A stretch of 38,631 nt of DNA, taken from contig CAYHYP010000001.1 in NCBI GenBank assembly GCA_964360925.1, forward strand, positions 1 through 38,631, given 5' to 3'. This DNA is from an uncultured Gammaproteobacteria bacterium. Lineage in GTDB: Bacteria > Patescibacteriota > Microgenomatia > JAMCZE01. The number at the start of each line of letters is the position of its first letter. Position 1 is the stretch's first letter. This document shows positions 4,510-38,631 of the stretch, in pieces. Under the pieces are notes generated by a model, which searched no databases, had not been told where the DNA came from, and saw nothing but the letters and a program-made list of their open reading frames with translations. The translations under genes and the position numbers were made by a program.

Positions 4510-4510
4510 A

Positions 4511-6411: not shown

Positions 6412-6448
6412 ACTTGACAAAATGCGGTTTCAGTTATAACATAATATT

Positions 6449-7700: not shown

Positions 7701-7704
7701 AAAA

Positions 7705-7758
7705 AATAATAATATTTTTGATTATAATATCTTAGTGGGGAATTATGGGAAACTTTAA
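7705..7758 (+). pseudogene. orphan 3'-end remnant of a tail-motif gene
   Basis: Reads NNNIFDYNILVGNYGKL* in the 60-nt gap between the AbiEii gene and the ATPase gene. Near-identical at DNA level to the 3' ends of 3292-4509 and 5134-6411. Confidence 0.5.
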
Positions 7759-14850: not shown

Positions 14851-15278
14851 TTTATCATTTAACATTTATTATTTATCATTTTTATTCATGATCGCACTGT
14901 CCAAAAGTCAGGAATTAGAAAATAGAACGACAAAATTTAGTATAAATTTAGTAAATTTATGTAAGAAATTTCCAAGGGTTTTAATAACTCAGAATATTAT
15001 TGAACAACTACTTCGTTCTGGAACAAGTATTGGGGCAAATTATCGAGAAGCAAACGGAGCATCAAGTAGAAAAGACTTTCGAAATAAAATATTAATTTGT
15101 AAAAAAGAATGTAAAGAAACTGAGTATTGGTTGCAGATGTTGGCAAATGCAGCTGATGATGATTTTGTCAGTAATAGTTGTAGGATATTGTGGAAAGAAA
15201 CACATGAATTTAATCTAATATTCTCAAGTGCTGCTGCAAATACTAAATGTTAAATAAATGAAAAATAATAAATAAAAA
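14851..15278 (+). mobile_element. four-helix-bundle gene cassette bounded by AT-rich heptamer repeats / 16-of-17 inverted repeat, inserted between def and fmt
   Basis: Left arm TTTATTATTTATCATTT (14865-14881). Right arm AAATGAAAAATAATAAA (15256-15272), whose reverse complement matches at 16/17. The left flank has 7-nt periodicity (TTTATCA TTTAACA TTTATTA TTTATCA). Confidence 0.4.
14888..15253 (+). CDS. four-helix-bundle protein (23S rRNA intervening-sequence protein family, TIGR02436-like)
   Basis: GTSIGANYREANGASSRKDFRNKILICKKECKETEYWLQML is the family signature. Confidence 0.85.
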   Translation: MIALSKSQELENRTTKFSINLVNLCKKFPRVLITQNIIEQLLRSGTSIGANYREANGASSRKDFRNKILICKKECKETEYWLQMLANAADDDFVSNSCRILWKETHEFNLIFSSAAANTKC

Positions 15279-16196
15279 ATGAAAAATCAGAGGGTTGCAT
15301 TTTTTGGAACATCAAAATATTGTTTGCCGGTTTTGGAGGCTTTGAAAAACCTGCCTGCCGGCAGGCAGGAATTGGTTCTTGTAATTACCCGCGAAGATAA
15401 ACCTGTGGGGAGAAAACAAATTTTGACACCGTCTCCCGTTAAACAATGGGCAATTAAAAATGGAATTAAAGTAGATTCTAGCGGCGTAGCCGCGAGCTTG
15501 CTCATCGCCCCGCCAACGGCGGGGCTCCAGAATGACGAAAAAGTAGATTTGGCAATCGTTGCTGATTACGGAAAAATTATAAAACACGAAGTTTATGAAA
15601 AACCAAAACTGGGAACCTTTAATATCCATTTTTCAAAATTGCCGGAACTTCGTGGCCCCTCCCCAGTGCAATCAACATTGTTACGCGGTGACAAAACCGC
15701 TTGGATAACAATTTATAAACTTAAATATTATCCCGAACTGGAAATTAAAATGGATTCCGGTCCTATTTTATGGCAAAAAGAATATCCCATCCTACCCGAC
15801 GACACCACCGAATCTTTGTATACCAGATTATTCCAAGAAATCGCCAAGGAAATACCGGAAATAATAAATTCTCTAGCCGCTTGCCGCTTGCCGCTAATTT
15901 CTCAAGACCACTCCAAAGCTACTTTTTGCAAAATGCTAACTAAGGATGATGGATTTATTGAATGGGATCTTTTGAAAAACAGTATGTATGTTGCATGTTG
16001 CGATCGCAACATGATACCTACATCTCGAGTTGAAAAATTATATAACCAATATAGAGCGATGTACCCTTGGCCGGGAATATGGACTATTAAAGATGGAAGA
16101 CGAATGAAAATTTTGAAATGCCATTTGGAAAAAGAAAAAATTGTTTTGGATGAAATCCAATTTGAAGGAAAAACCCCGGAAAAATACAAAAACTAG
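15279..16196 (+). CDS. fmt: methionyl-tRNA formyltransferase with two repeat-derived insertions
   Basis: N-terminal formyltransferase fold (VAFFGTS.., ITREDKPVGRKQILTPSPVK, NIHFSKLPELRGPSPVQ). Sits next to def. Confidence 0.9.
   Translation: MKNQRVAFFGTSKYCLPVLEALKNLPAGRQELVLVITREDKPVGRKQILTPSPVKQWAIKNGIKVDSSGVAASLLIAPPTAGLQNDEKVDLAIVADYGKIIKHEVYEKPKLGTFNIHFSKLPELRGPSPVQSTLLRGDKTAWITIYKLKYYPELEIKMDSGPILWQKEYPILPDDTTESLYTRLFQEIAKEIPEIINSLAACRLPLISQDHSKATFCKMLTKDDGFIEWDLLKNSMYVACCDRNMIPTSRVEKLYNQYRAMYPWPGIWTIKDGRRMKILKCHLEKEKIVLDEIQFEGKTPEKYKN
15350..15369. repeat. perfect 20-bp palindrome CCTGCCTGCCGGCAGGCAGG, in frame in fmt (LPAGRQ)
   Basis: Identical 20-mer at 26377-26396. Imperfect copy at 19566-19585. 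Confidence 0.85.
15474..15537. repeat. GTCAT-hairpin repeat unit (reverse orientation, long form), in frame in fmt
   Basis: gattctagcggcgtagccgcgagcttgctcatcgccccgccaacggcggggctccagaatgacg. Confidence 0.85.
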
Positions 16197-18290: not shown

Positions 18291-18965
18291 CTACATATAT
18301 TTTTTCTTTAACCGGATCGTTTCGCCGGAAAAATATTTCTTAATTTGCCCCCAATCAACTTTTCTAAACATCTTTGGCATTTCCGTTGTTTCAGTTTCCA
18401 CAAAATAAGAAAGACCCAGCAAAAAACTGTATACTCCGGATTCAAAATTACCATATTTTTCTCGGTATATTTCCAGACAACTATCCAAAGAAATATTTTG
18501 ATAATAAGATAATTCGTACAAATCAACAAAGTCTTTTTTGGTGCCACGATTCATAACTGCCCCTATTTTCATTGCCCCAATCTCTCTTGGGTCTAAAATT
18601 GGTATTCCCAAAAAATCATGTGTAGGAAATATTACGGGGTAAGAATAACGAAAAAGACTACAATGAGTTTGTCCATACGCCCAAAGAAGAGTATCGTCTG
18701 CAACTCTGTCCTCGGTATATTTTCCAAGTTTTTTAAGTTCAAAAGAAAGAGTCGGTTGGTGAAAAGATTTTGGGATAAAAAAATCCAAATCAACAGAAAT
18801 TCTATGGCCAAAATGCAAAGCCAATGCTGTTCCCCCTGCCAAATATGTCCCCTTTGGCAAAGTGTTTGTTTTTCCTAGTATGGCCAGACACTCCTGCGCA
18901 TCTCCCGGTAAGACTTTTGTAAACATAAAACCTGATTTTGGGGGATATTTAACACCAACTGCCAA
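18291..18965 (-). CDS. AbiEii-like nucleotidyltransferase (putative toxin)
   Basis: LAGGTALALHFGHRISVDLDFF motif. The stop codon directly abuts the 3' end of tRNA-Tyr. The true start may be ATG 18926. Confidence 0.65.
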   Translation of the reverse strand: MAVGVKYPPKSGFMFTKVLPGDAQECLAILGKTNTLPKGTYLAGGTALALHFGHRISVDLDFFIPKSFHQPTLSFELKKLGKYTEDRVADDTLLWAYGQTHCSLFRYSYPVIFPTHDFLGIPILDPREIGAMKIGAVMNRGTKKDFVDLYELSYYQNISLDSCLEIYREKYGNFESGVYSFLLGLSYFVETETTEMPKMFRKVDWGQIKKYFSGETIRLKKKYM

Positions 18966-19200: not shown

Positions 19201-20232
19201 TTATTTCTCATTGTTAAAAAAATTCAAAGTATCTTTAACTGCCTCGTTCCATTTTGGAACCATATTGTGATCTGCCCCCACGTACTCTTTATAAACTAAT
19301 TTGAAATTTAAAATTTGAAATTTGAAATTAAAGTCGCGATTCCAACGAACCGGAACCCATTCGTCAGCTTCTCCCTGTTGAATAAATATTGGCGCTTTTA
19401 TACTGTCTAAATATTTATCAAACGAATATTTATTGACGTCATAATCTTTTTCAAAATCAGCGGTGGCTTTTCTTAACCACAAACCTTCATCTTTATAACC
19501 GTCGGTATAATATAAAATGTTATATGGAAAAGATTTGGTCACCGGATTCCATAAAACCGTAGGAACCTGCCTACCGGCAGGCAAGATGGTTAATATTGTC
19601 AGAGCAATTTGCCCGCCATTGGAATGACCCCATAACATTAATTTACAACTGTCATCCTGACGAAGGTCAGGATCTCTCAACTTGTTTGAGTTAACACTCG
19701 CATTCGCGAGAGATGCTGAAACAAGTTCAGCATGACAGATTGAAGCTATTAAATCCATATTCGTGGTATACGTCAAAAATCTATTTTCAAAATCATCCCG
19801 ATGGCCATCGGGATCAGATTCCCCATATCCCAAAAAATCGGGGGCAAAAGTGACATAACCGTTTTTTGCCAGAACCTCGGCAACTTTTTGGGTTCCAAAA
19901 CCGGGAAAATATTCTCCCTCGTCTGCCGAACCATGAAGCAATAAAATTGCCGGTTTAACAGTGGCACTTTGGGTAGCTCCGTTTATTATTCCGGAAATTT
20001 TTTTGCCGTCGGAAGAATAATAAAATTTGTTGCCGGAAAAAGTAATCTCCGAAGGGATCCCTCCCCGTTTGCGTAAATTCTCTATCGTATATTTGTCCAG
20101 GGGTTTTTCAAAAAAGGGTTTGATTAAAGGAGAAGCCGGATATCTTTCTTTGAAATTTCCAAGCAAAAATATAACACTTACAATTATAATCGTAATTAAT
20201 AAAATTAAAAATCCAACCAGCCACTTTTTCAT
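19201..20232 (-). CDS. membrane-anchored alpha/beta hydrolase (S9/dienelactone-hydrolase-like) with repeat insertions
   Basis: N-terminal TM helix. Nucleophile elbow GHSNGG. Late GADH. Repeat inserts at 19566-19585 and 19651-19736. Confidence 0.7.
   Translation of the reverse strand: MKKWLVGFLILLITIIIVSVIFLLGNFKERYPASPLIKPFFEKPLDKYTIENLRKRGGIPSEITFSGNKFYYSSDGKKISGIINGATQSATVKPAILLLHGSADEGEYFPGFGTQKVAEVLAKNGYVTFAPDFLGYGESDPDGHRDDFENRFLTYTTNMDLIASICHAELVSASLANASVNSNKLRDPDLRQDDSCKLMLWGHSNGGQIALTILTILPAGRQVPTVLWNPVTKSFPYNILYYTDGYKDEGLWLRKATADFEKDYDVNKYSFDKYLDSIKAPIFIQQGEADEWVPVRWNRDFNFKFQILNFKLVYKEYVGADHNMVPKWNEAVKDTLNFFNNEK
19566..19585. repeat. imperfect copy of the CCTGCC..GGCAGG palindrome, inside the hydrolase gene
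   Basis: cctgcctaccggcaggcaag. Translated LPAGRQ on the minus strand. Confidence 0.7.
19651..19736. repeat. 86-nt composite triple-hairpin element, copy A (inside the hydrolase gene)
   Basis: gtcatcctgacgaaggtcaggatc-tctcaacttgtttgag..ctcgcattcgcgagaga-tgctgaaacaagttcagcatgac. Confidence 0.9.
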
Positions 20233-21462: not shown

Positions 21463-21531
21463 GTCATTCCAGCGAAGTGTCATGCTGAAATTTTTTCAGC
21501 ATCTGAGATCCTGAAACAAGTTCAGGATGAC
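21463..21531. repeat. GTCAT-hairpin cluster starting 1 nt after the rpmG stop
   Basis: gtcattccagcgaagt-gtcatgctgaaattttttcagcatc-tgagatcctgaaacaagttcaggatgac. Confidence 0.85.
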
Positions 21532-21557
21532 AATATAGCAAACACGGTGACACACGC

Positions 21558-22658: not shown

Positions 22659-22663
22659 TTTCT

Positions 22664-22749
22664 GTCATCCTGACGAATGTCAGGATCTCTCAATTTGTTT
22701 GAGTAATTTCTCGCATTCGCGAGAGATGCTGAATCGAGTTCAGCATGAC
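22664..22749. repeat. composite triple-hairpin element, copy B (6 nt after the murF stop)
   Basis: Near-identical to 19651-19736 and 36686-36769. Confidence 0.9.
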
Positions 22750-22753
22750 ACTA

Positions 22754-25043: not shown

Positions 25044-25045
25044 GC

Positions 25046-25169
25046 GTCATTCTGGAGCCCGAAGGGCGATAGAATCTTTTTATCAGAATAGATCCTAGTG
25101 GCGAAGCCGCGAGCTTGCTCATCACTCGCTTCGCTCGTTCCAGGATGACGAAAAAATTACAGAATGACG
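25046..25169. repeat. GTCAT-hairpin cluster filling the secE-nusG intergenic region
   Basis: gtcattctggagcccgaagggcgatagaatc + gatcctagtggcgaagccgcgagcttgctcatcactcgcttcgctcgttccaggatgacg + partial cagaatgacg. Confidence 0.9.
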
Positions 25170-26330: not shown

Positions 26331-26344
26331 TTTGAAAAACATGT

Positions 26345-26447
26345 GTCATTCCGGCGAAGGCCGGAATCTCTCGCGCCCTGCCTGCCGGCAGGCAGGAATG
26401 CGAGTTCCCAAACAAGTTGGGAGATGCTGAAACAAGTTCAGCATGAC
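26345..26447. repeat. GTCAT-hairpin cluster including the 20-bp palindrome, rplK-rplA intergenic region
   Basis: gtcattccggcgaaggccggaatc..cctgcctgccggcaggcagg..gagatgctgaaacaagttcagcatgac. Confidence 0.9.
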
Positions 26448-26480
26448 ACAAGGAAGATTATAAATTGTAAATTTTGGAGT

Positions 26481-27290
26481 ATGGGCAAAATAAAAACAGT
26501 CATCATGGGAGACGAGAAAGCGGAAGAACAGGCCCGCAAAAAAGTCGTGGCTAAAAGAGTGGCTAAAAAGGCAGCCCGTCATCCTGGAACGAGCGAAGCG
26601 AGTGATGAGCAAGCTCGCGGCTTCGCCACTAGGATCTATTCTGATAAAAAGATTCTATCAGCCGCCGTTGGCGGCTTCCAGAATGACGCTGGGGAGACGC
26701 TCCAGCATGACGAAAAAACAAAAGGCAAAAATTACCTCAAAGTTAAGAGTTTAGTTGATAAAACCAAGAAATATTCTATTAACGAAGCCTTGGATTTGGT
26801 CAAAAAAACCAGCTACTCCAAATTTGACGGATCGGTGGAAGTGGTTTTCAACGTTTTATCCAAAGGCCTTCGTGGCAACGTAACTTTGCCCCACGGTACC
26901 GGCAAAACTCTGCGCATCAAAATCGCCGACGACGCTCTTGTTGCCAACCCGGTGATAGATTTTGACATTTTGGTCGCCCACCCCTCTATGATGCCAAAAT
27001 TGGCAAAAATTGCCAAAATCCTGGGTCCCCGCGGTTTGATGCCCAATCCCAAAACCGGAACTATTGGAGAAAATGTGGAGGAGTTGGTCCTTCGACTTCG
27101 CTCAGGGCAGCAAAGCTGGAAAACCGAAAGCGACTTCCCTATCATCCATACAATTCTCGGCAAGGTTTCTTTTGAAGAAAAAAAACTCTCGGAAAATTTT
27201 GCCGTCTTGTTAAAATCTATCACCAAAGACAAAATAGTTTCAATTTTTGTTAAGGCTACAATGGGCCCCAACGTCAGAGTACAAATTTAA
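26481..27290 (+). CDS. rplA: 50S ribosomal protein L1 with Lys/Ala-rich N-terminal extension and ~45-aa repeat-derived insertion
   Basis: The L1 core starts at KGKNYLKVKSLVDKTKKYSINEALDLVKK..FDGSVEV. Preferred start is ATG 26481 with GGAG 2 nt upstream. The track ORF from 26343 runs through a repeat cluster. Confidence 0.88.
   Translation: MGKIKTVIMGDEKAEEQARKKVVAKRVAKKAARHPGTSEASDEQARGFATRIYSDKKILSAAVGGFQNDAGETLQHDEKTKGKNYLKVKSLVDKTKKYSINEALDLVKKTSYSKFDGSVEVVFNVLSKGLRGNVTLPHGTGKTLRIKIADDALVANPVIDFDILVAHPSMMPKLAKIAKILGPRGLMPNPKTGTIGENVEELVLRLRSGQQSWKTESDFPIIHTILGKVSFEEKKLSENFAVLLKSITKDKIVSIFVKATMGPNVRVQI
26578..26712. repeat. GTCAT-hairpin cluster, in frame in rplA
   Basis: Translated RHPGTSEASDEQARGFATRIYSDKKILSAAVGGFQNDAGETLQHD. 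Confidence 0.9.
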
Positions 27291-28071
27291 TATTTTCTTT
27301 AATTATTGTTTTAAAATTGGCTACGAAATTATCGAGTTCCCTGCTTGATTCAATAAACGGCAATAAATCTCTATAAACATCTTCTTTATTAATTTTTTCA
27401 ACTTTTTTAATTATTTCCAGGGCAATTTTTTGAGAATTTTTAATGTCCGGTTTTAGGGACCAGTTCGCTCTTTTTGATCTTTCCAAAAACCAGACAATAT
27501 CAAATAGATCCCTGCCCTTGAAAGGAACTGCTTGTTTGTTCCCTTTGAAATATACTCTTTCTATAAACGCGGTAATTTTATTAGTGAAAAGCGTTGCTAA
27601 ATCATAGGCTAAAACAAAAATAGTAAAATCCCCCGCGGAAATAGAATTGATTTCTGTCTTAAAACTTCCCGGCTTTTGGGCGCAAAAATCACAACGGACA
27701 AAAAGCACCGGCGAATTTCCAAAATTTATAGGGAATTTCAAAAAGACGGTTTTTCCGTTACCGCTTATTTTGGTAGTCATTTCTTTATACGAAATCTCTT
27801 CAATCAAATATCTTGTAATTTTGGAAGTAAATTTTTCTATTTCAAATTCGTCTGTAAAATTAAAATCTAAATCTTCTGATAGACGGGGCAGACCATAAAT
27901 TTTTCGTAAACAAGTTCCGCCGGTAAAAATTAAGGTTTTATAATCAGGATCATTGTAAACAAAATTAAGCACGTAATTTTGCAACGCCTCTTTAAGCAAG
28001 CTCCGGGTAAAAAAAGCGTTTTTGCTTACTGATTGTTGTTCAAGAATATTTTTTAAATCATCAGAAATCAT
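27274..28071 (-). CDS. AbiEii/AbiGii-family nucleotidyltransferase toxin
   Basis: FTGGTCLRKIYGLPRLSEDLDFNF. 4-nt overlap with the upstream AbiEi gene. Its 3' end overlaps the rplA 3' end convergently. Confidence 0.75.
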   Translation of the reverse strand: MISDDLKNILEQQSVSKNAFFTRSLLKEALQNYVLNFVYNDPDYKTLIFTGGTCLRKIYGLPRLSEDLDFNFTDEFEIEKFTSKITRYLIEEISYKEMTTKISGNGKTVFLKFPINFGNSPVLFVRCDFCAQKPGSFKTEINSISAGDFTIFVLAYDLATLFTNKITAFIERVYFKGNKQAVPFKGRDLFDIVWFLERSKRANWSLKPDIKNSQKIALEIIKKVEKINKEDVYRDLLPFIESSRELDNFVANFKTIIKENIKFVL

Positions 28072-28670
28072 AAAATTCCTTTACGCTTTAAGAATACAAC
28101 GATTTTTTGCATTTTTCCAGAATTTGAGGCTTTTACTAGCTCCCCAAATTCTGTTTTATCTTCTAGAGATAACGCGTCCCAATTCATTCTGTCTTCACTT
28201 TTTAAATACCCACTGTCTTTTAAGTATAAAAGATCAAAAAGCGCTTTGGCGGGACTGGCGATCTTGCGTCCATAATTTTCAAACAAAGATTTTTTAATAT
28301 GACGATAGCTAAAAGTTCCCACGGCGGATTTATAAACACGGGGGGATTTTATGGTTACGGAGGTAATTGCAAAAGACGTTTCAGGCAAAAAACCACAGTT
28401 AGATAAAACATACTCCAAAGAGACGTAGGAAGGAAACCGTAACATATTGGCTAAATATTCAAAATAATCTTCCCTCTTTTTTGATTCCTGAGAAACTAAA
28501 TCTAAATAATACGAGGAAATATAAAAACCCTTTTTCAAACTTATCAGATCCCCATCTTTAATTAGTTTTTTTATCCAATAATCTGTGTTGTCCCTCTTTT
28601 TACCCAAAGCCAACGCCAGATTTTGCTTGGTAAAATACGGCGCTTGTTTTAAAATGTCATTTAGTTTCAT
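28068..28670 (-). CDS. AbiEi-family antitoxin / transcriptional regulator
   Basis: PSYVSLEYVLSNCGFLPE motif. Paralog of 6449-7027 and 31888-32496. Confidence 0.7.
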   Translation of the reverse strand: MKLNDILKQAPYFTKQNLALALGKKRDNTDYWIKKLIKDGDLISLKKGFYISSYYLDLVSQESKKREDYFEYLANMLRFPSYVSLEYVLSNCGFLPETSFAITSVTIKSPRVYKSAVGTFSYRHIKKSLFENYGRKIASPAKALFDLLYLKDSGYLKSEDRMNWDALSLEDKTEFGELVKASNSGKMQKIVVFLKRKGIL

Positions 28671-28885
28671 AATTAGTAGTAATTACTACCAATTGTGACA
28701 GGAAATATTAAATTTGTCAAGCCCCCTGGTAATTTGGTCTATGAAAATAAAACCGAAACCGGAGGCAGCCGGGCGAACGACGGAGACTGTTTATTGAAAA
28801 GAGTTGCCATTGATAGTACCACGTATTCTGTTTCAACCTAACCCATTATTACGATTCCCCTTTGTAAATCCTTGTATTTTATATA

Positions 28886-28919
28886 CATCACACTAACAAG
28901 CGGCCGCTTTATGCTGTGA
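28886..28919. repeat. direct-repeat copy 1 with GCGGCCGC palindromic core (downstream flank of 28950-29612)
   Basis: CATCACACTAACAAGCGGCCGCTTTATGCTGTGA. Shares ACATCACA-N5-CAAGCGGCCGCTTTAT with copy 2. Confidence 0.6.
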
Positions 28920-28949
28920 CGGGAAACAGATACGGGTTTCAAATAAACG

Positions 28950-29612
28950 TTAAGTGAAAAACCAATTATGATAATAATCATCCCCTTCAAATCGTTCACT
29001 AACCAAATAAGTGACTTCTTTGCTCACATTAAATACCTGACGAATAAACTCCACCTCGTTTTCGCATGGATGAGGAAAAATTAAAACACTTTCGTTTAAA
29101 GAAATAAAACCAATTTCCTTTAATTTTCCCCGCAGCCGATCCCGCAATCTTCTTTTGGTTTCCGCCACATCAAAAATAACCAGTCTCCACTTGCTATCCC
29201 ACTTGTCCGGTTTTTTAATTTTCATCTCTTCAAATTTATATTCCAAAGCTTTTTTATGTCCGTCCTGTGTAATTTCCACTTTTGTCTCACCATTTTCATA
29301 GGTTATTTTCACCAACTTGCGTCTTTTGAGTCGCTCCAATCTTTGGTTAAATTTAGTTCTTTCCCGCCATTTGAGTTCTTTTCCCACAACGGCTGCCAAA
29401 CCGGGAGCAATAACCGCCAAACTAATGGCACCACCAACCGCCAAAATCATCAAAAGATCCTTCGTCAATGGATATTTTTCAATCCCCTTTTTGAGCTTTT
29501 TCTCCCAACTTTCTTTTTCCGGAGCAAAAATTTTTGCCGCCATTTCCCAATTTATCCCGCTTGTCCCGACCGAGTCGGGAACCAAATCGGAGTCTACCCT
29601 ATTATTTGTCAT
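28950..29612 (-). CDS. PaaX-like / Cas2-fold domain protein with a TM helix (putative regulator)
   Basis: C-terminal KWDSKWRLVIFDVAETKRRLRDRLRGKLKEIGFISLNESVLIFPHP matches the PaaX_C/Cas2-like pattern (WDgkW..v.fDiPe..r..Rd.lr..L...GF..l..SV...P). Confidence 0.5.
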   Translation of the reverse strand: MTNNRVDSDLVPDSVGTSGINWEMAAKIFAPEKESWEKKLKKGIEKYPLTKDLLMILAVGGAISLAVIAPGLAAVVGKELKWRERTKFNQRLERLKRRKLVKITYENGETKVEITQDGHKKALEYKFEEMKIKKPDKWDSKWRLVIFDVAETKRRLRDRLRGKLKEIGFISLNESVLIFPHPCENEVEFIRQVFNVSKEVTYLVSERFEGDDYYHNWFFT

Positions 29613-29806: not shown

Positions 29807-30280
29807 ATGCCAAAAGAAAAAAATATCCAGTCTGTTGCCAAAATCAAAGAAAAATTATCCCGTGCCAAGGGCGTGGTTTTGACGGATTATCAGGGGCTGA
29901 CTCACAAACAACTTGAGCAATTGCATTTGGCTTTGAAAAATGTTGGCGCGGAATATTTGGTGGTAAAAAATAGTTTACTAAAAATTGCTTCTGCAGAGAT
30001 GCTGAAACAAGTTCAGCATGACACAATTATTGGTCCAACGGCAGCTCTTTTTTCTTTTGACGATACCTTGTCCCCGCTTAAAGAACTTTTTAAATTTATA
30101 AAAGCCAATGCCTTGCCAAAAGTTAAAAGCGGAAATATTGACGGAAAAACTTACGAAGCCGCGGAGTTGGCAGTTTTGGCCGCTTTGCCTTCAAGAAACG
30201 ATCTCATTTCACAACTTATGTATACACTTAATGCGAATACACAGAAACTGGCTTATCTTTTGACACAAATTAAAAAATAA
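29807..30280 (+). CDS. rplJ: 50S ribosomal protein L10 with short repeat-derived insertion
   Basis: KEKLSRAKGVVLTDYQGLTHKQLEQLHLALKNVGAEYLVVKNSLLKIA. Upstream of rplL. Confidence 0.9.
   Translation: MPKEKNIQSVAKIKEKLSRAKGVVLTDYQGLTHKQLEQLHLALKNVGAEYLVVKNSLLKIASAEMLKQVQHDTIIGPTAALFSFDDTLSPLKELFKFIKANALPKVKSGNIDGKTYEAAELAVLAALPSRNDLISQLMYTLNANTQKLAYLLTQIKK
29998..30022. repeat. single hairpin unit, in frame in rplJ
   Basis: gatgctgaaacaagttcagcatgac. Translated (E)MLKQVQHD. Confidence 0.85.
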
Positions 30281-30286
30281 AACTAC

Positions 30287-30366
30287 GTCATTCTGGAACG
30301 AGCGAAGCGAAGTGATAGAATCTATTTTTAGAAAGATCCTATCGCCCTTCGGGCTCCAGGATGACG
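30287..30366. repeat. fwd + rev unit pair filling the rplJ-rplL intergenic region
   Basis: gtcattctggaacgagcgaagcgaagtgatagaatc .. gatcctatcgcccttcgggctccaggatgacg. Confidence 0.9.
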
Positions 30367-30772: not shown

Positions 30773-30774
30773 AT

Positions 30775-30799
30775 GTCATCCTGAACTTGTTTCAGGATC
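30775..30799. repeat. single hairpin unit 3 nt after the rplL stop
   Basis: gtcatcctgaacttgtttcaggatc. Confidence 0.85.
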
Positions 30800-32816: not shown

Positions 32817-32866
32817 CCAATCTTCCAATATCCAATTTTTCAATTTCCAATAACCAATGACCAATT
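32817..32866. repeat. CCAAT-type heptamer tandem tract (flank of four-helix-bundle gene)
   Basis: CCAATCT TCCAATA TCCAATT TTTCAAT TTCCAAT AACCAAT GACCAAT. Confidence 0.7.
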
Positions 32867-33222
32867 TATTTTGAGGATTTTATTAGGATAGAACTAACGA
32901 TTGCTTCAATTTCCTGGCCCTCTTTTATTAACGGCTCCATACGTTTTGAATAACCTGGATTCGTAGCAGAAATCATTTTTAACCAATAATTTGTCTCCTT
33001 TGTTTCTTTTTTAACAACCGTAAAACTATTCACAAACTGTTTTTTACTAGTAGACCCGTCTGCTTCTTGACCATTTGCTCCCATGGAAGTTGCTGATCTG
33101 GAGATTTGGTTAACAAAACCTAAATTTTGAACAGTCTTTGGAAGAACTTTTGTTAAATTTACTACACGTACAACAAAATCAAATATTCTATTGTGAATGT
33201 CAAAATCAGCCATATATTTCAA
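32866..33222 (-). CDS. four-helix-bundle protein (23S rRNA IVS protein family)
   Basis: SATSMGANGQEADGSTSKKQFVNSFTVVKKETKETNYWLKMI. The track start 33222 is TTG; ATG 33213 (MADFDIHNRIFDF) is likelier. Confidence 0.85.
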   Translation of the reverse strand: MKYMADFDIHNRIFDFVVRVVNLTKVLPKTVQNLGFVNQISRSATSMGANGQEADGSTSKKQFVNSFTVVKKETKETNYWLKMISATNPGYSKRMEPLIKEGQEIEAIVSSILIKSSK

Positions 33223-33368
33223 TCAATCCAATCATCCAATTCCCAATTATTCAATATCCAATCAACCAATTTCCAATATTTCAATTGGTCATTGAGAATT
33301 GGATATTGATTAGTATTGGCTATTGGTCATTGGTTTTATTGATGTTGGTCATTAGTTGATTGATTTTG
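33223..33368. repeat. CCAAT heptamer tract switching to inverted ATTGG/TTGGTCA heptamers (long imperfect palindrome)
   Basis: CCAAT-phase repeats run to ~33284, then ATTGGTCATTGAGAATTGGATATTGATTAGTATTGGCTATTGGTCATTGG.... Overlaps the last ~10 codons of galT. Confidence 0.7.
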
Positions 33369-34457
33369 TGAAATTCCCTCTTTGTACTCCTCCGCTGCTG
33401 TTTTTGGATCTACAATATTGACCAATATCCCCGTCCCCAGTTCAAAACCGGCCCGGTGAATAAACCGCGGAATAATCCGCAAATACCAATTTTGTCCGTG
33501 ATAAATATAAAAGTTGTAAGGGATGTCTGTTTCGTCATTCTGGAGCGAAGCGATGAACGAGCTCGAGGCTTCGCCACTAGCATCTGTTTTGGAAGATCCT
33601 ATCGGGCTTTGCCCTCCAGGATGACCACGTTTAAATTTATTTACAATTGCTTTTAATATTTTTTGTAAAACTACTGCCAGATCTGAAATTTGATCGTCTG
33701 TAATATGACCAAAGGTAGATTCTATCGGTCGCTTTGCTCCCTCCAGAATGACGTCATGCTGGAGCGAAGCGATAGCATCTTCTCTTGGAGTAATCCACAC
33801 CTCATATGGCCATTCCGAATAATCCGGGCAATAAGCTGTGAACTGTGAACTTTGCATTACTACGTTTGCTACCGGTTCCCGAACAATGTTTTCCACGGAA
33901 ATTTCCGGTGGCACCACTACTACTTGTGAATGCGGATGCTCCAACGACGCCCCCGCGTGAATATCGTGATTGTTAAAAATCAAAACGGTTCCAAACCTCT
34001 TATTATAGTTATATCTCTGCCTGTAAGTCTGCAAAATCAGTTCCACTTGTTTTAAGGGCAACTCGTCAATGTCCTTCTCGTGATCGGGACTATGGATAAT
34101 AACCTCATGAAACTCCGTCAAGGGGTATTTATTTGTGATAACACGAATTAACCAGTTAGAAGATCCTATCGCCCCGCCGCGGCGGGGCTCCAGGATGACG
34201 TCATTCTGGAGGGCGGAGCCCGATAGAATCTTTTTACCAGAATAGATCCTAGCGGCAAAGCCGCGAGCTTGCTCATCACTCGCTTCGCTCGTTCCAGGAT
34301 GACGTATGACAAACACTTCCTTATTTAACCTCTCGTTTCCGGGGCAAAATGGGCAACTATTTTGTGGGTGAGCCACACTATCATGCGGCCTTGTGACCCG
34401 TGCCGGGGCAATAATTACAAACTTATTTCCTTTGATATTATGTCTAAAATTTGCCAC
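33336..34457 (-). CDS. galT: galactose-1-phosphate uridylyltransferase (HIT family) with three repeat-derived insertions
   Basis: GTG start. CPFCPGNE zinc motif, EHPHSQVVVVP (HxHxQ) active site. Confidence 0.85.
   Translation of the reverse strand: MANFRHNIKGNKFVIIAPARVTRPHDSVAHPQNSCPFCPGNERLNKEVFVIRHPGTSEASDEQARGFAARIYSGKKILSGSALQNDVILEPRRGGAIGSSNWLIRVITNKYPLTEFHEVIIHSPDHEKDIDELPLKQVELILQTYRQRYNYNKRFGTVLIFNNHDIHAGASLEHPHSQVVVVPPEISVENIVREPVANVVMQSSQFTAYCPDYSEWPYEVWITPREDAIASLQHDVILEGAKRPIESTFGHITDDQISDLAVVLQKILKAIVNKFKRGHPGGQSPIGSSKTDASGEASSSFIASLQNDETDIPYNFYIYHGQNWYLRIIPRFIHRAGFELGTGILVNIVDPKTAAEEYKEGISQNQSTNDQHQ
33534..33625. repeat. GTCAT-hairpin cluster, in frame in galT (C-terminal part)
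   Basis: gtcattctggagcgaagcgatgaacgagctcgaggcttcgccactagcatc .. gatcctatcgggctttgccctccaggatgac. Confidence 0.85.
33718..33779. repeat. rev + fwd unit pair, in frame in galT
   Basis: gattctatcggtcgctttgctccctccagaatgac-gtcatgctggagcgaagcgatagcatc. Confidence 0.85.
34162..34304. repeat. three-unit cluster, in frame in galT (N-terminal part)
   Basis: gatcctatcgccccgccgcggcggggctccaggatgac-gtcattctggagggcggagcccgatagaatc..gatcctagcggcaaagccgcgagcttgctcatcactcgcttcgctcgttccaggatgacg. Confidence 0.9.
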
Positions 34458-34504
34458 TATTTATAATCTAACATAGATAGTTGCATTTTTGTTATACTGA
34501 TTCT

Positions 34505-34581
34505 GGCGTGGGCCCGGCAGGTTTGCTAGATTGGATTGATACCCCAAATCTACGGGGCTCAACTCCCCGCGGGTCCACGCC
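34505..34581 (+). ncRNA. candidate structured RNA (77 nt, tRNA-sized, 12-bp closing stem); strand uncertain
   Basis: GGCGTGGGCCCG (34505-34516) pairs with CGGGTCCACGCC (34570-34581) with 1 mismatch. Internal hairpins GCA-GGTT-TGC and CGGGG-CTCAACT-CCCCG. No family recognised. Confidence 0.3.
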
Positions 34582-35103: not shown

Positions 35104-35114
35104 ATATTAACCGT

Positions 35115-35237
35115 GTCATTCTGGAGCCCTTTTCCGTCATGCTGGAGCGCAGCGATAGCATCTTCTTTTGTTTTTAGATAGATCCTATCGGTCGTTTCAC
35201 TCCCTCCAGGATGACGGTGTCAGGCTTCCAGGATGAC
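35115..35237. repeat. cluster spanning the 35104-35173 intergenic region and the 3' end of 35174-36811
   Basis: gtcattctggagccc.. gtcatgctggagcgcagcgatagcatc .. gatcctatcggtcgtttcactccctccaggatgac .. ttccaggatgac. Confidence 0.85.
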
Positions 35238-36811
35238 ACACTGGTTGGTCTTATACTATCAATTTTATCACTATTTTTATTGACTAAATAAGTCCCTTCG
35301 TCCGTCTCTACTTTGCGGCGGCGGATGGCTTTTTTGGGTTTATGTAAAACATGGAGAGGATAAAATTCAAAATAATCTTTTTCGTCAAACCAGGCGCATT
35401 TAAATTCAAAGAGGCGTAACCCGGTCAATCTGGATAAAGCCATAGCATACAGTGTCAATTGTTCAATCGGCCGCTCTTTTTCGGCGTTAGGTTTAAAGTC
35501 CAAAAGATGAATCATCCCGTTTCTAATTTGCACAAAATCAATATGGCCGGTAATCAATTTTGGTAATTTGTCATGCTGGAGCGTCTCTGCGTCATTCTGG
35601 AGCGAAGCGATAGAATCTATTTTTTCGTTGGAAGATCCTATCGTCCCGCTTAGCGGGACTCCAGGATGACGCTGAAATATCTCAAATCCCAGTTGGCTCT
35701 TCATATGTTCCAAATCGTCCCGCGTCAAATACACCGGCACTTCCGTGGCGACAGTGACAGAATCGTTATAAAGCATAAATTTTTGCAAAATCTCATGGCG
35801 GTTTTTTCTCTCTTTTGCCCCCTGCAAAACAAACGCCGCCAATTTTGTGGCGTAATTGGTTTTTCCCCGGACGATCATGGCTGTTTTGGAAAATGCCAGC
35901 GGCGTTTCCGAAGCCCGTTCTCCCTGGTTAAAATACTGATGTGGACACTCCCCCGGCACCATTTCCAAAAACTCCACCAGCGGAGTAAAAAGCCGGTGAT
36001 GGAAATTTTCCTGCATAATAAGCCTGCATTTTGCCCGGTGAAATCTGAATCTGTAAAGTTGCCGGTGCGCCAAAGTGGCGGTGATTATCATGTCTGTTGG
36101 TTTATATTTTTGCATGGCAAAATCCCGCATTCTTAAAAACGGCAAATCGTCTTTAAATTCCGTGATCCAACTTGATAAAGTTGATGGATTTATTGATAAC
36201 GTGTCATGCTGGAGTGTCCCCCCTGCGTCATTCTGGAGGGCGGAGCCCGATAGAATCTTTTTACCAGAATAGATCCTAGCGGCAAAGCCGCGAGCTTGCT
36301 CATCGCTCGTTTCACTCGCTCCAGGATGACGAACGGCAGGGCTCCAGGATGACGCATGGGCGTTCACCCTCCTACAACTCTCCTCCAGCGAATATCCCAA
36401 ATTATAAAGTGAAATGGCGTCAAAAATGGTAGCCAGAGGATAATGTTTTCCGGAAACGGAATGCGGAGTAAAAGTTTTGTGACAATCTTTGCAAATATAA
36501 AGTTGTACATTCTCCCGTTTTTTAATCCGCAGTCCCCGTCTGACAAAATTTTTATTTAAACAATACGGGCAACAAAATGTGTCAACAATAGGTCTAATTG
36601 TCATCCCAGACAAGCTGGGAGATGCCGGATCGAGTCCGGCATGACACAGTGTCATTCCGGCCTCCGAGCCGGAATCTATACTCGTGTCATCCTGACGAAT
36701 GTCAGGATCTCTCAACTTGTTTGAGTCACTCGCATTCGCGAGAGATCCCGAAACAAGTTCGGGATGACGCTTATTCAATAATTTTTTAATCCCTTCAAAC
36801 ATATTTTTCAT
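35174..36811 (-). CDS. Zn-ribbon + PD-(D/E)XK-nuclease-like protein, heavily invaded by hairpin repeats
   Basis: CCPYCLNKNFV..YICKDCHKTF zinc ribbon. C-terminal GHIDFVQ..IHLLDFKPN resembles a D...(D/E)xK nuclease motif. Four repeat clusters. Alternative start ATG 36604. Confidence 0.55.
   Translation of the reverse strand: MKNMFEGIKKLLNKRHPELVSGSLANASDSNKLRDPDIRQDDTSIDSGSEAGMTLCHAGLDPASPSLSGMTIRPIVDTFCCPYCLNKNFVRRGLRIKKRENVQLYICKDCHKTFTPHSVSGKHYPLATIFDAISLYNLGYSLEESCRRVNAHASSWSPAVRHPGASETSDEQARGFAARIYSGKKILSGSALQNDAGGTLQHDTLSINPSTLSSWITEFKDDLPFLRMRDFAMQKYKPTDMIITATLAHRQLYRFRFHRAKCRLIMQENFHHRLFTPLVEFLEMVPGECPHQYFNQGERASETPLAFSKTAMIVRGKTNYATKLAAFVLQGAKERKNRHEILQKFMLYNDSVTVATEVPVYLTRDDLEHMKSQLGFEIFQRHPGVPLSGTIGSSNEKIDSIASLQNDAETLQHDKLPKLITGHIDFVQIRNGMIHLLDFKPNAEKERPIEQLTLYAMALSRLTGLRLFEFKCAWFDEKDYFEFYPLHVLHKPKKAIRRRKVETDEGTYLVNKNSDKIDSIRPTSVSSWKPDTVILEGVKRPIGSI
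35570..35671. repeat. cluster in frame in 35174-36811
   Basis: gtcatgctggagcgtctctgc-gtcattctggagcgaagcgatagaatc..gatcctatcgtcccgcttagcgggactccaggatgacg. Confidence 0.85.
36203..36354. repeat. cluster in frame in 35174-36811
   Basis: Same unit series as 34200-34304, plus flanking partial units. Confidence 0.9.
36600..36769. repeat. cluster including composite element copy C, at the 5' end of 35174-36811
   Basis: gtcatcccagacaagctgggagatgccggatcgagtccggcatgac..gtcattccggcctccgagccggaatc..copy C (36686-36769). Confidence 0.9.
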
Positions 36812-37059
36812 TTTCTTCCAGATTTCTACTCTTTTCTTTAAAAATTATTTAAATTTGTTTTTTATAATTCGTTTTGTTCTCTTTCTTGCTCATCCAAGAA
36901 AGCGAACCGAAAGAAAGATGCCCGGTGCTCACGGTTCTGAAAATCCTCTTTTCGTTCTTGAGGAACCTTCCCACGCCTACGGCGGGGTATACCTCTACGA
37001 ACTCAAGGTGTATTTTCTTTCACCTTACCGCAATCGGGTTCAATGGAAAATTCATATTC

Positions 37060-37106
37060 GTCATTCTGGAGCCCGGAGGGCGATAGAATCTTTTTACCAG
37101 GATGAC
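37060..37106. repeat. intergenic unit plus partial unit
   Basis: gtcattctggagcccggagggcgatagaatctttttaccaggatgacg. Confidence 0.85.
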
Positions 37107-37237
37107 GGCTCAACAATAATCTAACTTTTTCAAACATATTTGTTATGTTAAACTAAATATATTGTTGGACAAAATTGTTTATTAATGATAGTATTTCCAT
37201 ACGGTTATCAAGCGTGAGGGAATTTGAACTCACACAG

Positions 37238-37263
37238 AAAAAGCTCTCGCAAGAGAGCTTTTT
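37238..37263 (-). terminator. rho-independent terminator of the tail-fibre-like gene
   Basis: AAAAAGCTCTC-GCAA-GAGAGCTTTTT, immediately after the stop at 37263-37265. Confidence 0.7.
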
Positions 37264-38631
37264 CATTGGCAAACTCCTTTCGTTCTTATAATCTCCCCAT
37301 TATTTATTTGTACACAATAATCATCTCCCGTAGTTTTGTCTTTCAAAATAATCCCCTTCTCCACCCGCAATTGACCGGAAACGGTGGCATCGCCCAAAAT
37401 GGAAACCGTGCCCGTTAATGATGAAATTTCCGCTTTCAAATCATCAAAATGTAGCAGTCCAACTTGGAGACTGCCACCAATAGAAGTATTTGCCAACTGG
37501 GTAGTCCCCACCACTTTCAAACTTTCGGTAAAATTGGCAAATTGGGCGGAAATAGTTGCCACATCAATATTTGTCCAATTGGATAAATTGGGCAGATTTG
37601 TCAAATTTGTTAAGACCGCGGAATTTGATGCGGTGTCATGCTGAACTTGTTTCAGCATCCCCGATTGACTCGCCATCTCCACTTTCAACAATTCAATTTC
37701 AGTTTGGATTTGAGGAATTAGAGATAATTTTGTAGAAATATCTTGTGTCATTCTGGCCGAGTCCAGAATCATTCCTGAAATACTGGCAATCATGTCATTC
37801 TGGAGCGAAGCGATAGAATCTATATCACGAATTGCGATGGTCAATATCTCACGAGTTTGCAAATTCCGGGCATTTCCTTCTGAAATCGTGAGATTTAACA
37901 GGCCTGAAATTGACGCATTGTCATCCTGAACTTGTTTCAGGATCCCATCCAATTCTTTGATTCCGGCAATGGCATATGGAATTACATTTGACGCATTAAG
38001 TCTTAAGAACCCGTCTGGCCCCGTAGAAACACTGTCAGGGAAGATTTGTTGAAAATCCTGGGCAATGAAACCATAGTGCTCAATATTGGCGATTTCCGGG
38101 TGGGCGGAGAGATATTCGGCGGTATATTTAAACTGCGAGGGCTTTAACTGCGAAATCAGAGCCAAAGCGTTGGGTATAATTTCAATGTCTTGTTTGACAC
38201 GGGCGTCGGAGGTGTTGGTCCATAAAGTTCCGGTTGAAAGTCCGGCGGTTCCGACCACATCTAATTTATGACCGGGGTTAGTCGTCCCGATGCCGACGTT
38301 GCCCGTGGTTGTTATTCTGACCCTTTCCGCTGGTCCTGAAACACCATCAAACGGAGCAAAATAAATATCACCAGTATTAGCCGTGTTCTCATTATCCATC
38401 CCGATGATACTATTTCTGTTCGTTGAACCACCTGTAGTTCGAAGTACTAACTCTACACGCAAATCATTGGTTGCCCCAGCCGTGCTAACCAGCCCGCCAA
38501 TAACTCCATTTTCTAATCCAGTTGTAGCATCTGTATCTTGAACAACCAATTTCCACCCCGGTGCCGTCGTCCCGATGCCGACGTTGCCTTCGATTATCAT
38601 CCCTGACGTTGGCGCAGCTATTGAACCATAT
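37263..38631 (-). CDS. tail-fibre-like / surface fibre protein with S74-type intramolecular chaperone domain (5' end outside window)
   Basis: Frame stays open to the window edge. Repeated GNVGIGTT(A/N)PG.KL(V/D)V. SDARVKQDIEII..HYGFIAQDFQQIFPDSV matches the endosialidase-chaperone (SDxRxK) pattern. C-terminal region carries repeat inserts. Confidence 0.7.
   Translation of the reverse strand, partial: YGSIAAPTSGMIIEGNVGIGTTAPGWKLVVQDTDATTGLENGVIGGLVSTAGATNDLRVELVLRTTGGSTNRNSIIGMDNENTANTGDIYFAPFDGVSGPAERVRITTTGNVGIGTTNPGHKLDVVGTAGLSTGTLWTNTSDARVKQDIEIIPNALALISQLKPSQFKYTAEYLSAHPEIANIEHYGFIAQDFQQIFPDSVSTGPDGFLRLNASNVIPYAIAGIKELDGILKQVQDDNASISGLLNLTISEGNARNLQTREILTIAIRDIDSIASLQNDMIASISGMILDSARMTQDISTKLSLIPQIQTEIELLKVEMASQSGMLKQVQHDTASNSAVLTNLTNLPNLSNWTNIDVATISAQFANFTESLKVVGTTQLANTSIGGSLQVGLLHFDDLKAEISSLTGTVSILGDATVSGQLRVEKGIILKDKTTGDDYCVQINNGEIIRTKGVCQ
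37635..37659. repeat. single hairpin unit in frame in the tail-fibre-like gene
   Basis: gtcatgctgaacttgtttcagcatc. Confidence 0.85.
37747..37820. repeat. two units in frame in the tail-fibre-like gene
   Basis: gtcattctggccgagtccagaatc ... gtcattctggagcgaagcgatagaatc. Confidence 0.85.
37920..37944. repeat. single hairpin unit in frame in the tail-fibre-like gene
   Basis: gtcatcctgaacttgtttcaggatc (identical to 30775-30799). Confidence 0.85.

Follow-up and report, generated by a model that had tools for sequence, protein, structure and literature searches.

In-frame palindromic repeats of the CGTC type in a GalT-like gene and other genes of a Microgenomates bacterium

Three in-frame inserts in a GalT-like gene

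A contig of 38,631 nucleotides (nt) from an uncultured groundwater Microgenomates bacterium (GenBank assembly GCA_964360925.1, contig CAYHYP010000001.1; hereafter the window, meaning the whole stretch of DNA that was analyzed) carries a GalT-like gene whose open reading frame (ORF) runs without interruption from a GTG start through three clusters of palindromic repeats. The initial annotation, made from the sequence alone, described in-frame interruption of galT by about 300 nt of repeats, spread over three sites. An alignment of 20 sequences, comprising the window protein and its orthologues, bears out this description, since three segments of the protein are private to the window. When mapped back to the DNA, these segments place the clusters within 1-2 nt of the positions first proposed. 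The estimate of ~100 added residues in a product of 373 amino acids (aa) likewise holds: the remaining core is ~273 aa, and the enzyme is 37% longer for its inserts. The gene and its inserts are as follows.

33336-34457, minus strand: GalT-like ORF, 373 aa
34162-34304, minus strand: insert 1, 143 nt, residues ~52-100, encoding RHPGTSEASDEQARGFAARIYSGKKILSGSALQNDVILEPRRGGAIG(SS)
33718-33779, minus strand: insert 2, 62 nt, residues ~229-248, encoding DAIASLQHDVILEGAKRPIE
33533-33626, minus strand: insert 3, 94 nt, residues ~278-308, encoding GHPGGQSPIGSSKTDASGEASSSFIASLQND

The identity of the host gene is best seen in its conserved core. The ORF matches the Pfam family GalP_UDP_transf (PF01087) with 42.8 bits against a cut-off of 22.1, and DUF4931_N is also above its cut-off. 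The zinc motif CPFCPGNE (residues 35-42, with CPFC at 35-38) and the active-site motif HPHSQ (174-178) are intact, as had been noted, and are invariant or nearly so in the alignment. Thus, the protein has both the H-x-H-x-Q nucleophile motif and the CxxC metal site of GalT, which belongs to branch III of the HIT superfamily, and all 69 columns that are invariant in the family are retained. Among 5.8 billion proteins searched, thousands of relatives were found, the best of which are Microgenomates/Patescibacteria proteins of 264-346 aa named DUF4931 or UDP-glucose--hexose-1-phosphate uridylyltransferase; the closest orthologue is only ~70% identical. Solved GalT-like proteins related to the ORF include 1z84/2h39, 6k5z and 1hxp.

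The NCBIfam equivalog thresholds for GalT are not reached, either for PRK11720 (55.6 versus 448 bits) or for TIGR00209 (36 versus 102 bits), and we therefore prefer GalT-like/DUF4931 as the safer name on the present sequence comparisons, using galT below as shorthand. These low scores fit a distinct DUF4931 subfamily, and orthologues that lack the inserts are likewise named DUF4931.

An AlphaFold2 model built from the alignment has a mean predicted local distance difference test (pLDDT) score of 67 and a predicted template modeling (pTM) score of 0.70. The pLDDT is 83-96 across most of the core (residues ~101-280), falls below 50 at residues 60-97 and 279-307, which correspond to inserts 1 and 3, and is 61-71 around insert 2. 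Foldseek searches with the model recover the ADP-glucose phosphorylase structures 2h39/1z84 as well as GalT structures 6k5z and 1hxq (E values of 1e-10 to 1e-14), with an ADP-glucose phosphorylase as the top match.

One might ask whether the repeats were simply mis-joined into galT by the metagenome assembler, given that high-copy repeats are known to break or mis-join short-read assemblies, and that Logan contigs do break inside these repeats. As expected of high-copy sequence, each Logan contig from this region joins a unique flank to a portion of a repeat, within which it ends. The contigs from four runs belonging to three groundwater studies nevertheless join the unique galT flanks to the adjacent repeats, tile positions 33300-34500 together and reveal no junction differences. 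In addition, the reading frame is preserved through three inserts, which random mis-joins would not do. With the junctions bridged in independent runs, the chance that the inserts are an assembly artifact is negligible.

A family of CGTC-tagged hairpins

All three inserts are composed of modules that recur throughout the window and follow one plan: a tag (YGTC), a stem start (ATNCYG), an inner part, the complementary sequence CRGNAT and a tail C. The stems start with AT in every module. The head [CTG]GTCATNCYG is found 55 times in 38.6 kb, compared with a mean of 1.1 in shuffled sequences, and the 12-mer GTCATYCTGGAG is found 36 times with at most one mismatch, compared with 0.13 expected. Among the head tags, 33 are CGTC, 21 are TGTC and one is GGTC; the TGTC tag, a one-base departure from CGTC, marks short subtypes. 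Complete units measure 25-64 nt, and at least 4.4% of the window is made up of modules. A permissive-threshold search of Rfam yields no family for the repeats of the window.

The commonest subtype has the form CGTC-ATYCT-GGAG-[GC-rich hairpin, often GAA loop]-CGAT-AGRAT-C, which if folded would give a continuous stem broken only by one G.T and tandem G.A/A.G pairs. Its long form has a 24-nt internal expansion. Several perfect hairpins of 25-27 nt are also present (for example TGTCATSCTGAACTTGTTTCAGSATC, TGTCATCCTGACGAAGGTCAGGATC and TGTCATTCCGGCGAAGGCCGGAATC). The short subtypes, such as ATSCTGAA/TTCAGSAT with a loop of 4-5 nt and a tail C(TC), fit the stem description of the CGTC-tagged repetitive extragenic palindromic (REP) sequences discussed below. 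Base pairing is well preserved: of 216 modules from the window and 113 other genome stretches, 214 keep Watson-Crick pairing at the third stem position, and the inner hairpins vary between copies by arm swaps, such as GGGC..GCCC versus GCCC..GGGC, and by compensatory changes.

Modules pair in two modes. In the head-to-head mode they share a GACGTC center, as in insert 2, where a plus-strand REP (33752-33779) meets a minus-strand REP (33718-33753). In the tail-to-tail mode they form a 106-nt unit that resembles a MITE (miniature inverted-repeat transposable element), with terminal inverted repeats CGTCATYCTGGAG at its start and CTCCAGRATGACG at its finish. Insert 1 contains such a dimer, made of a long REP (34245-34304), a spacer and an inverted REP (34199-34244), together with an additional REP (34162-34200), whose overlap with the dimer is the CG of a GACGTC junction. 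In insert 3, a variant tail-to-tail dimer, a GGTC-tagged REP (33595-33626) is joined to a degenerate long arm with its head at 33533-33545. Across the window, tail-to-tail dimers lie at 34199-34304, 36226-36331, 25045-25150, 26577-26688, 1036-1116, 14560-14641 and 30286-30366.

Genic copies keep the frame and avoid stop codons

Protein-coding sequence makes up 87% of the window. Heads are ~2.2-fold enriched in the non-coding 13%, yet most are genic, with 39 of 55 inside ORFs and no ORF broken. Every intragenic cluster, in about nine genes, keeps the frame. Specifically, of the antisense-oriented heads within ORFs, 20 are read as LQ(N/H)D and three as SRMT; the remaining frame, in which a TGA lies, is used by none. 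Only two of the six frames of the 106-nt dimer are open, and its three intragenic copies share one of them, RHPG...LQND. A predicted example of the repeat peptide in its host-protein context (galT/L1/L10/peptide deformylase) reads ...EVFVIRHPGTSEASDEQAR.... On a rough criterion, 70% of the modules in the window fall within long ORFs, compared with 42% of those in other loci of the candidate phyla radiation (CPR) and 22% of those elsewhere.

A different fate for such sequences would be removal or skipping after transcription, through excision and ligation of the kind seen with intervening sequences (IVSs), through intron-like splicing or through translational bypassing. CPR genomes are known for intervening sequences in their rRNA genes, hairpin-rich bypassed elements exist in T4 gene 60 and in the byps of yeast mitochondria, and the insert hairpins are very stable (insert 1 folds as RNA at -69.4 kcal/mol, z = -4.6). 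However, splicing or bypass would free both the frame and the stop codons from constraint, whereas both are constrained here, and element frames that contain stops are never in phase. Moreover, the window has no Rfam match to an intron or ribozyme and no Pfam Hint/intein domain, and the inserts begin with R, D or G and are followed by N, S or E rather than having the Cys/Ser/Thr junctions of inteins. We consider removal or skipping highly improbable, and the frame and stop pattern reads instead as the signature of a selection filter acting on translated sequence.

The initial annotation had itself raised the prospect that this galT is a decaying pseudogene, in which case repeats would have invaded a gene that is no longer needed. 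The load of three insertions in a gene of ~820 nt is indeed heavy, the equivalog scores fall far below their cut-offs, and the N- and C-terminal parts of the structural model have low confidence. Against decay, the 1.1-kb ORF has no interruption, its three inserts are each in frame and free of stops, its catalytic and metal-binding motifs are kept, and the gene occupies the syntenic position of its orthologue in a relative, GCA_023485845.1 (hereafter L114). Comparison with that orthologue gives a ratio of nonsynonymous to synonymous substitution rates (dN/dS) of ~0.14, a rough figure given that dS is saturated. Contigs of three runs differ from the window by five clustered changes at 33945-33948 and 33954 (CGAC to ACTG, C to G), all of them synonymous; among them, the serine codon two positions ahead of HPHSQ switches from TCG to AGT. 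Strain contigs of greater divergence add 34 single differences, of which 27 are synonymous and most are at third positions, which brings the synonymous total to 32 of 39.

Insertions of the same kind are also found in the essential genes def, fmt, rplA and rplJ. The view that galT is decaying is thus very unlikely, and these substitution patterns indicate a core under purifying selection that would probably encode a conserved and still active enzyme. A second galT elsewhere in the genome is beyond the reach of the 38.6-kb window.

Near-identical copies and possible exchange within the family

The initial annotation also proposed that insert 1 had recently been copied or converted between galT and a neighboring Zn-ribbon gene ~2 kb away. 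This neighbor, here called ORF545 (35174-36811, minus strand, 545 aa), encodes a Zn-ribbon/PD-(D/E)xK protein. The near-identity on which that proposal was based is real. The dimer at 34199-34304 is identical to that at 36226-36331 at 102 of 106 positions (94% over 113 nt), which makes these the closest pair in the window, and the left 65 nt, inner hairpin included, are the same in both.

The proposed two-locus event fares less well. The element is also present at 25045-25150 and 26577-26688, each copy matching the galT dimer at 98 of 106 positions, and the galT dimer is a mosaic: its left 65 nt correspond to the copy at 36.2 kb, whereas its right arm matches the copies at 25.0 and 26.6 kb and not that of the neighbor. 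Those two copies, upstream of nusG and in rplA, share 83 nt at 100% identity, complementary to 26577-26659. Shorter variants of the dimer reside in def, in the Wzy_C ORF (wzy) and in the rplJ-rplL spacer, and the neighboring gene holds nothing built like insert 2 or insert 3. With the same element at several loci and 55 heads across the window, a special exchange between galT and its neighbor is not needed, and we regard it as unlikely. Since the galT copy is a mosaic of two others, exchange among copies is plausible, but as a feature of the whole family and not of this pair. In the source metagenomes, k-mers of the repeats reach a depth of up to 890 compared with ~8 for the unique flanks, a difference of up to ~100x. 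Together these copy relationships point to a family that is recently active or recombining.

The other copies in the window are as follows.

36202-36354, minus strand: in-frame copy in ORF545, the closest paralogue of insert 1, with an extra half-head on each side
35569-35671, minus strand: second in-frame REP cluster in ORF545, encoding RHPGVPLSGTIGSSNEKIDSIASLQNDAETLQHD
36621-36769, minus strand: annotated 5' end of ORF545, with four short REP modules of types TGTCATSCYG...
35114-35238: REP cluster across the 3' end of ORF545 and the spacer to the next gene
25045-25169: intergenic copy of the 106-nt dimer upstream of nusG
26577-26712, plus strand: in-frame N-terminal extension of rplA (ribosomal protein L1; true start ~26481), encoding RHPGTSEASDEQARGFATRIYSDKKILSAAVGGFQNDAGETLQHD
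14537-14665, plus strand: in-frame short-variant dimer with half-heads in def (peptide deformylase, 14170-14850)
15474-15537, plus strand: in-frame long REP in fmt (methionyl-tRNA formyltransferase, 15279-16196)
29998-30023, plus strand: in-frame 26-nt REP TGTCATGCTGAACTTGTTTCAGCATC in rplJ (ribosomal protein L10), antisense reading EMLKQVQHD
1036-1140, plus strand: in-frame short-variant dimer in a Wzy_C (O-antigen ligase-like) ORF (42-1256), which also has a single REP at 516-551
19650-19737, minus strand: in-frame pair of short REPs in an alpha/beta-hydrolase ORF (19201-20232)
37634-37944, minus strand: four in-frame REPs (37634-37659, 37746-37770, 37793-37820 and 37919-37944) in a 445-aa Peptidase_S74-domain (tail-fibre-like) ORF (37263-38600)
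30286-30366: intergenic short-variant dimer in the rplJ-rplL spacer
21478-21532, 22663-22750, 26344-26448, 30774-30799 and 37059-37107: other intergenic copies

The insert in def cuts the Pfam match of that protein into two stretches. The modules at 36621-36769 are probably upstream of the true start of ORF545, near the Met of MTIRPIV.

Shared insertion sites in relatives

Comparison with orthologues, which the initial annotation had suggested, shows that GalT proteins of relatives either lack these inserts or have others at the same positions. The syntenic relative L114 has the gene order galT - HTH (helix-turn-helix) - rplL - rplJ - rplA - rplK - nusG - secE, with a NusG 82% identical to that of the window and a GalT 70% identical in aligned columns. 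Its 12.9 kb contain no module heads, and its GalT, L1 and L10 are without the inserts of the window. The family has thus expanded in the lineage of the window. Similarly, the rplA insert is absent from L1 of both L114 and a further relative, L119. The loop that holds the REP in the window rplJ is occupied in L10 of L114 by another palindrome (LPAGRP). Among the GalT orthologues of the alignment, site 1 holds PAFAKASAGKG in P0005, and at site 2 P0007 has an unrelated HAGLDPASISIDSGSEAGMT and P0019, P0037 and P0042 have long inserts of low complexity.

A second palindrome type, CCTGCC(TGCC)GGCAGG(CAGG), is also found in frame and encodes LPAGRQ. In the window it occurs in fmt ('NLPAGRQEL'), in the ORF at 19201-20232 ('ILPAGRQVP') and at about 26375-26400, and in relatives it occurs in L1 and L10 of L114 and in the ORF545 orthologue of L119.

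ORF545 provides a second example of site reuse. With its inserts removed, the protein is laid out as a CxxC...CxxC ribbon, an HTH-like segment and a PD-(D/E)XK/QxxxY nuclease; the intact protein has no Pfam match, and removal of the inserts yields a weak match to PDDEXK_1. Its homologues in Microgenomates number 2136, with lengths of 383-606 aa and identities of 60-87%. The orthologue in relative L116 (1643-2902) carries in-frame GTAG-tagged hairpins, GTAGGGGTCGGGTCTCCCGACCC, GTAGGGGCGCGGTCTTCGCGCCC..., at exactly the two sites that hold CGTC repeats in the window. The orthologue in L119 has other CGTC dimers at both of these sites and the 21-nt palindrome CCTGCCTGCCGGCAGGCAGG (LPAGRQ) at a third. 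A few loops are thus reused by different palindromic families, either because only those loops tolerate insertion or because palindromes attract palindromes, or both. With other palindromes at the same sites in L116 and L119 and no near empty site, the boundaries of the inserts cannot be set to the base.

Some sources describe ORF545 as 'transposase-like'. A role for it as the nuclease that mobilizes the REPs was considered and rejected, since the protein is highly conserved, with many of its 2136 homologues having no CGTC repeats nearby.

Several other features of the window deserve mention. The rplK-rplA-rplJ-rplL block is split between rplA and rplJ (27274-29612) by three minus-strand genes, which encode an AbiEii toxin, a 200-aa AbiEi-like ORF and a protein with a PaaX_M/Cas2-like domain. 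The corresponding gap is empty in L114 and holds a gene resembling a REP-associated tyrosine transposase (RAYT) in L119. Two further AbiEii genes are present at 6990-7700 and 18291-18965. CCAAT-rich repeats with a 15-nt period (32817-32852 and 33228-33293) lie on both sides of a 23S-rRNA-IVS-protein gene (32866-33222), and another IVS-protein gene is found at 14888-15253. In the spacer past the 5' end of galT, positions 34510-34576 (plus strand) have a GC-rich, tRNA-like fold with a weak, sub-threshold Rfam match to mascRNA-menRNA (26 bits, E 0.3) and no tRNA call by ARAGORN. Finally, a direct repeat of ~50-93 nt, 74-83% identical among copies (4429-4521, 6331-6423, 7700-7752 and 10122-10214) and containing TTTGAYTATAAT...GTGGGGAATT, is located at the ends or starts of consecutive genes without known function. 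Its appearance is that of a promoter or 5' leader common to a series of paralogous genes.

A model for the origin and persistence of the inserts

According to the current model of REPtron systems, an IS200-like Y1 transposase mobilizes their hairpin repeats in the form of single-stranded DNA. Two relatives have RAYT-like Y1 (IS200-type) genes, at 5349-6047 in L117 and at 4402-5085 in L119, the latter between rplJ and rplA. Their products match Pfam Y1_Tnp with 24.9 and 31.4 bits (cut-off 23), and their only NCBIfam match is REP_Tyr_transpos, at 39-41 bits versus a cut-off of 80. The L117 gene has the hairpin GTGCAAGGGGAGGCCTTGCAC on both sides, as in a REPtron, and a similar hairpin stands beside the L119 gene. 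These proteins are a lead rather than an answer.

Other candidate carriers yield less. L121, a metagenome contig of 1722 nt, is the only other metagenome contig with the spacer specific to the composite element, and its dimer lies ~230-400 nt from a frameshifted IS30-like transposase gene; no shared ends connect the two, and no link between them can be demonstrated. No cognate autonomous insertion sequence with the same ends, as the parent of a MITE would have, was found. Carriage by phage was also considered and rejected, as the motif is present in a single contig of the 2.9 million viral contigs that were scanned.

Taken together, these data make it likely that the galT inserts are mobile or recombining REP/MITE-like DNA, which survives only where it is in frame, free of stops and in a permissive loop, and which is translated with its host. 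The inserts would be copies of a genome-wide family of CGTC-type REPs, present both singly, as hairpins, and in MITE-like inverted dimers of 60-145 nt, that spread or exchange among many sites of this Microgenomates (CPR/Patescibacteria) genome. Spread could proceed through a single-stranded hairpin intermediate and an enzyme acting in trans, or through recombination between copies. Selection would then filter the genic insertions and keep those that enter in frame, offer a stop-free frame and fall in a surface loop tolerant of added length. Surviving copies would be transcribed and translated to give disordered loop extensions such as RHPG...LQND, VILE... and ...IGSS. In the case of galT, the outcome would be a conserved enzyme that still works with ~100 extra residues.

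Several observations weigh against this model. The module spans of 143, 62 and 94 nt are not multiples of three, and the true insertion units and any target duplication are undefined. No galT allele with an empty site was found in the Logan contigs, where a search for contigs that skip an insert returned only repeat-to-repeat joints and none that fits an insert boundary; the contigs of the closer relatives L116 and L119, which were found through ORF545, do not carry galT. The AlphaFold2 model is shallow, and its confidence is also low at residues 1-33 and 334-355, which are outside the inserts. No RNA run contains the galT locus, and retention of the inserts in mRNA and their translation are predictions of the model. 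Finally, there is no transposase in the 38.6-kb window, and the hairpin that flanks the RAYT-like genes differs from the repeats of the window and is absent from it. Thus, the mobilization step is putative.

Regardless of the route of spread, the repeats have consequences for biology and for annotation. This ultra-small CPR genome bears a very heavy load of palindromic repeats and tolerates them in genes as essential as def and fmt and in those for L1, L10 and a GalT-like enzyme. The galT sites, together with the recurrent sites in relatives, map loops that accept 20-50 extra residues, and the system offers a natural experiment in which selfish DNA creates variation in protein length. In practice, such inserts break Pfam and NCBIfam matches (as with ORF545), add to the length of proteins, cause short-read assemblies to fragment and give rise to spurious similarity among proteins that are not related. 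The near-identity of its copies also makes this lineage a good place to seek the agent that mobilizes CGTC REPs.

Relation to known repeat systems

A scan of one genome per species with the exact outer motif CGTCATYCTGGAG...GATAGRATC found it in more than 113 genome stretches, where the G.T and the tandem G.A interruption are likewise conserved. The groups represented are Fibrobacterota, Bacteroidota, Gammaproteobacteria, Firmicutes, Cloacimonadota, Chloroflexota, CPR and archaea. The hosts include Fibrobacter, Alistipes, Sodaliphilus, gammaproteobacterial metagenome-assembled genomes, Christensenellaceae, Cloacimonadota, Anaerolinea, Caldilineaceae, many CPR lineages and two archaea. A search of the 5.8-billion-protein index with the peptide of insert 1 gave a single 73-aa match, which is uninformative on distribution since a word index is unsuited to the task.

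A bolder proposal would be that all these sequences are one pan-prokaryotic mobile hairpin, CGTC-ATYCTGGAG-[variable hairpin]-CGATAGRAT-C, mobilized or bound by a factor that recognizes its non-Watson-Crick core. In CPR it would have become an important and continuing supply of new surface loops for conserved proteins, among them ribosomal proteins, and it might be co-opted at the mRNA level. The evidence does not support this proposal, and we view it as doubtful.

Within the searchable library, no paper was found that joins CPR or Patescibacteria with REPs or MITEs, and searches for the motif strings returned only unrelated primers. In-frame insertion of REP-like elements or of Rickettsia palindromic elements (RPEs) is a known phenomenon. 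What sets this case apart is the lineage, for which no description was found, and the unusually high density of insertions.

The closest match among known repeats is the CGTC class. GTAG- and CGTC-tagged REPs were defined by Di Nocera, De Gregorio and Rocco (2013, BMC Genomics 14:522; PMC3733652). CGTC units are described there as stems of 8-9 bp that start with A-T pairs, with a loop of 4-5 nt and a short tail, and as forming dimers. Rickettsia RPE-4 and RPE-6 belong to the class, as does Neisseria dRS3, and according to that paper no dedicated transposase is known for it. Genic units in frame are reported for both classes, with dozens in Opitutus terrae and Rickettsia conorii.

The window repeats appear to fit this class in tag, stem start, dimers and the lack of a linked transposase. 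Specifically, they share the tag 5' of the stem-loop (CGTC, here often TGTC), first two stem pairs of A-T/T-A, the short unpaired tail, many dispersed copies that include singles and both types of dimer, some in-frame genic copies and the lack of a flanking dedicated transposase. They differ in that their host belongs to CPR/Microgenomates, outside the five phyla listed in that paper. The commonest module in the window has a longer, two-part stem with G.T and tandem G.A/A.G (CTGGAG/CGATAG) and a variable distal hairpin. Tail-to-tail dimers with the 24-nt expansion, common in the window, are described as rare by Di Nocera and colleagues, and 39 of 55 heads are genic here, in contrast to a mainly intergenic location there.

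In their way of working, the repeats recall the RPEs (Ogata et al., 2000, as covered in PMC10969869 and PMC3733652), which a review of MITEs treats as an extreme case of in-frame MITE insertion (PMC10969869). Both comprise palindromes of ~100-150 nt that sit in frame in housekeeping genes with no relation to one another, in a host-dependent bacterium whose genome is reduced, and that encode conserved peptides thought to be compatible with the fold of the host protein, and RPE-4 and RPE-6 share the CGTC tag. Thus, a pattern first seen in Rickettsia recurs in a very different lineage with a reduced genome. The phylum is another one, however, and the likeness is one of behavior and not of sequence membership in RPE-1 to RPE-10. 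Furthermore, the elements of the window are short modular hairpins of several subtypes, and they are denser locally, with three inserts in one gene of ~820 nt plus those in L1 and L10.

Bacterial MITEs such as Coxiella QMITE1, ERIC and BOX (PMC10969869; PMC5896051) are likewise small and non-autonomous, have terminal inverted repeats and can give rise to translational fusions or insertions. For the window repeats, by contrast, neither a target-site duplication nor a parent insertion sequence with matching ends was identified, and their terminal inverted repeats are complete REP hairpins. Similarly, systems of GTAG REPs, bacterial interspersed mosaic elements (BIMEs) and RAYTs are built on hairpin repeats, and they are echoed by the RAYT-like proteins of L117 and L119 and the GTAG hairpins of L116, whereas the window itself has no RAYT and carries CGTC and TGTC tags in place of GTAG.

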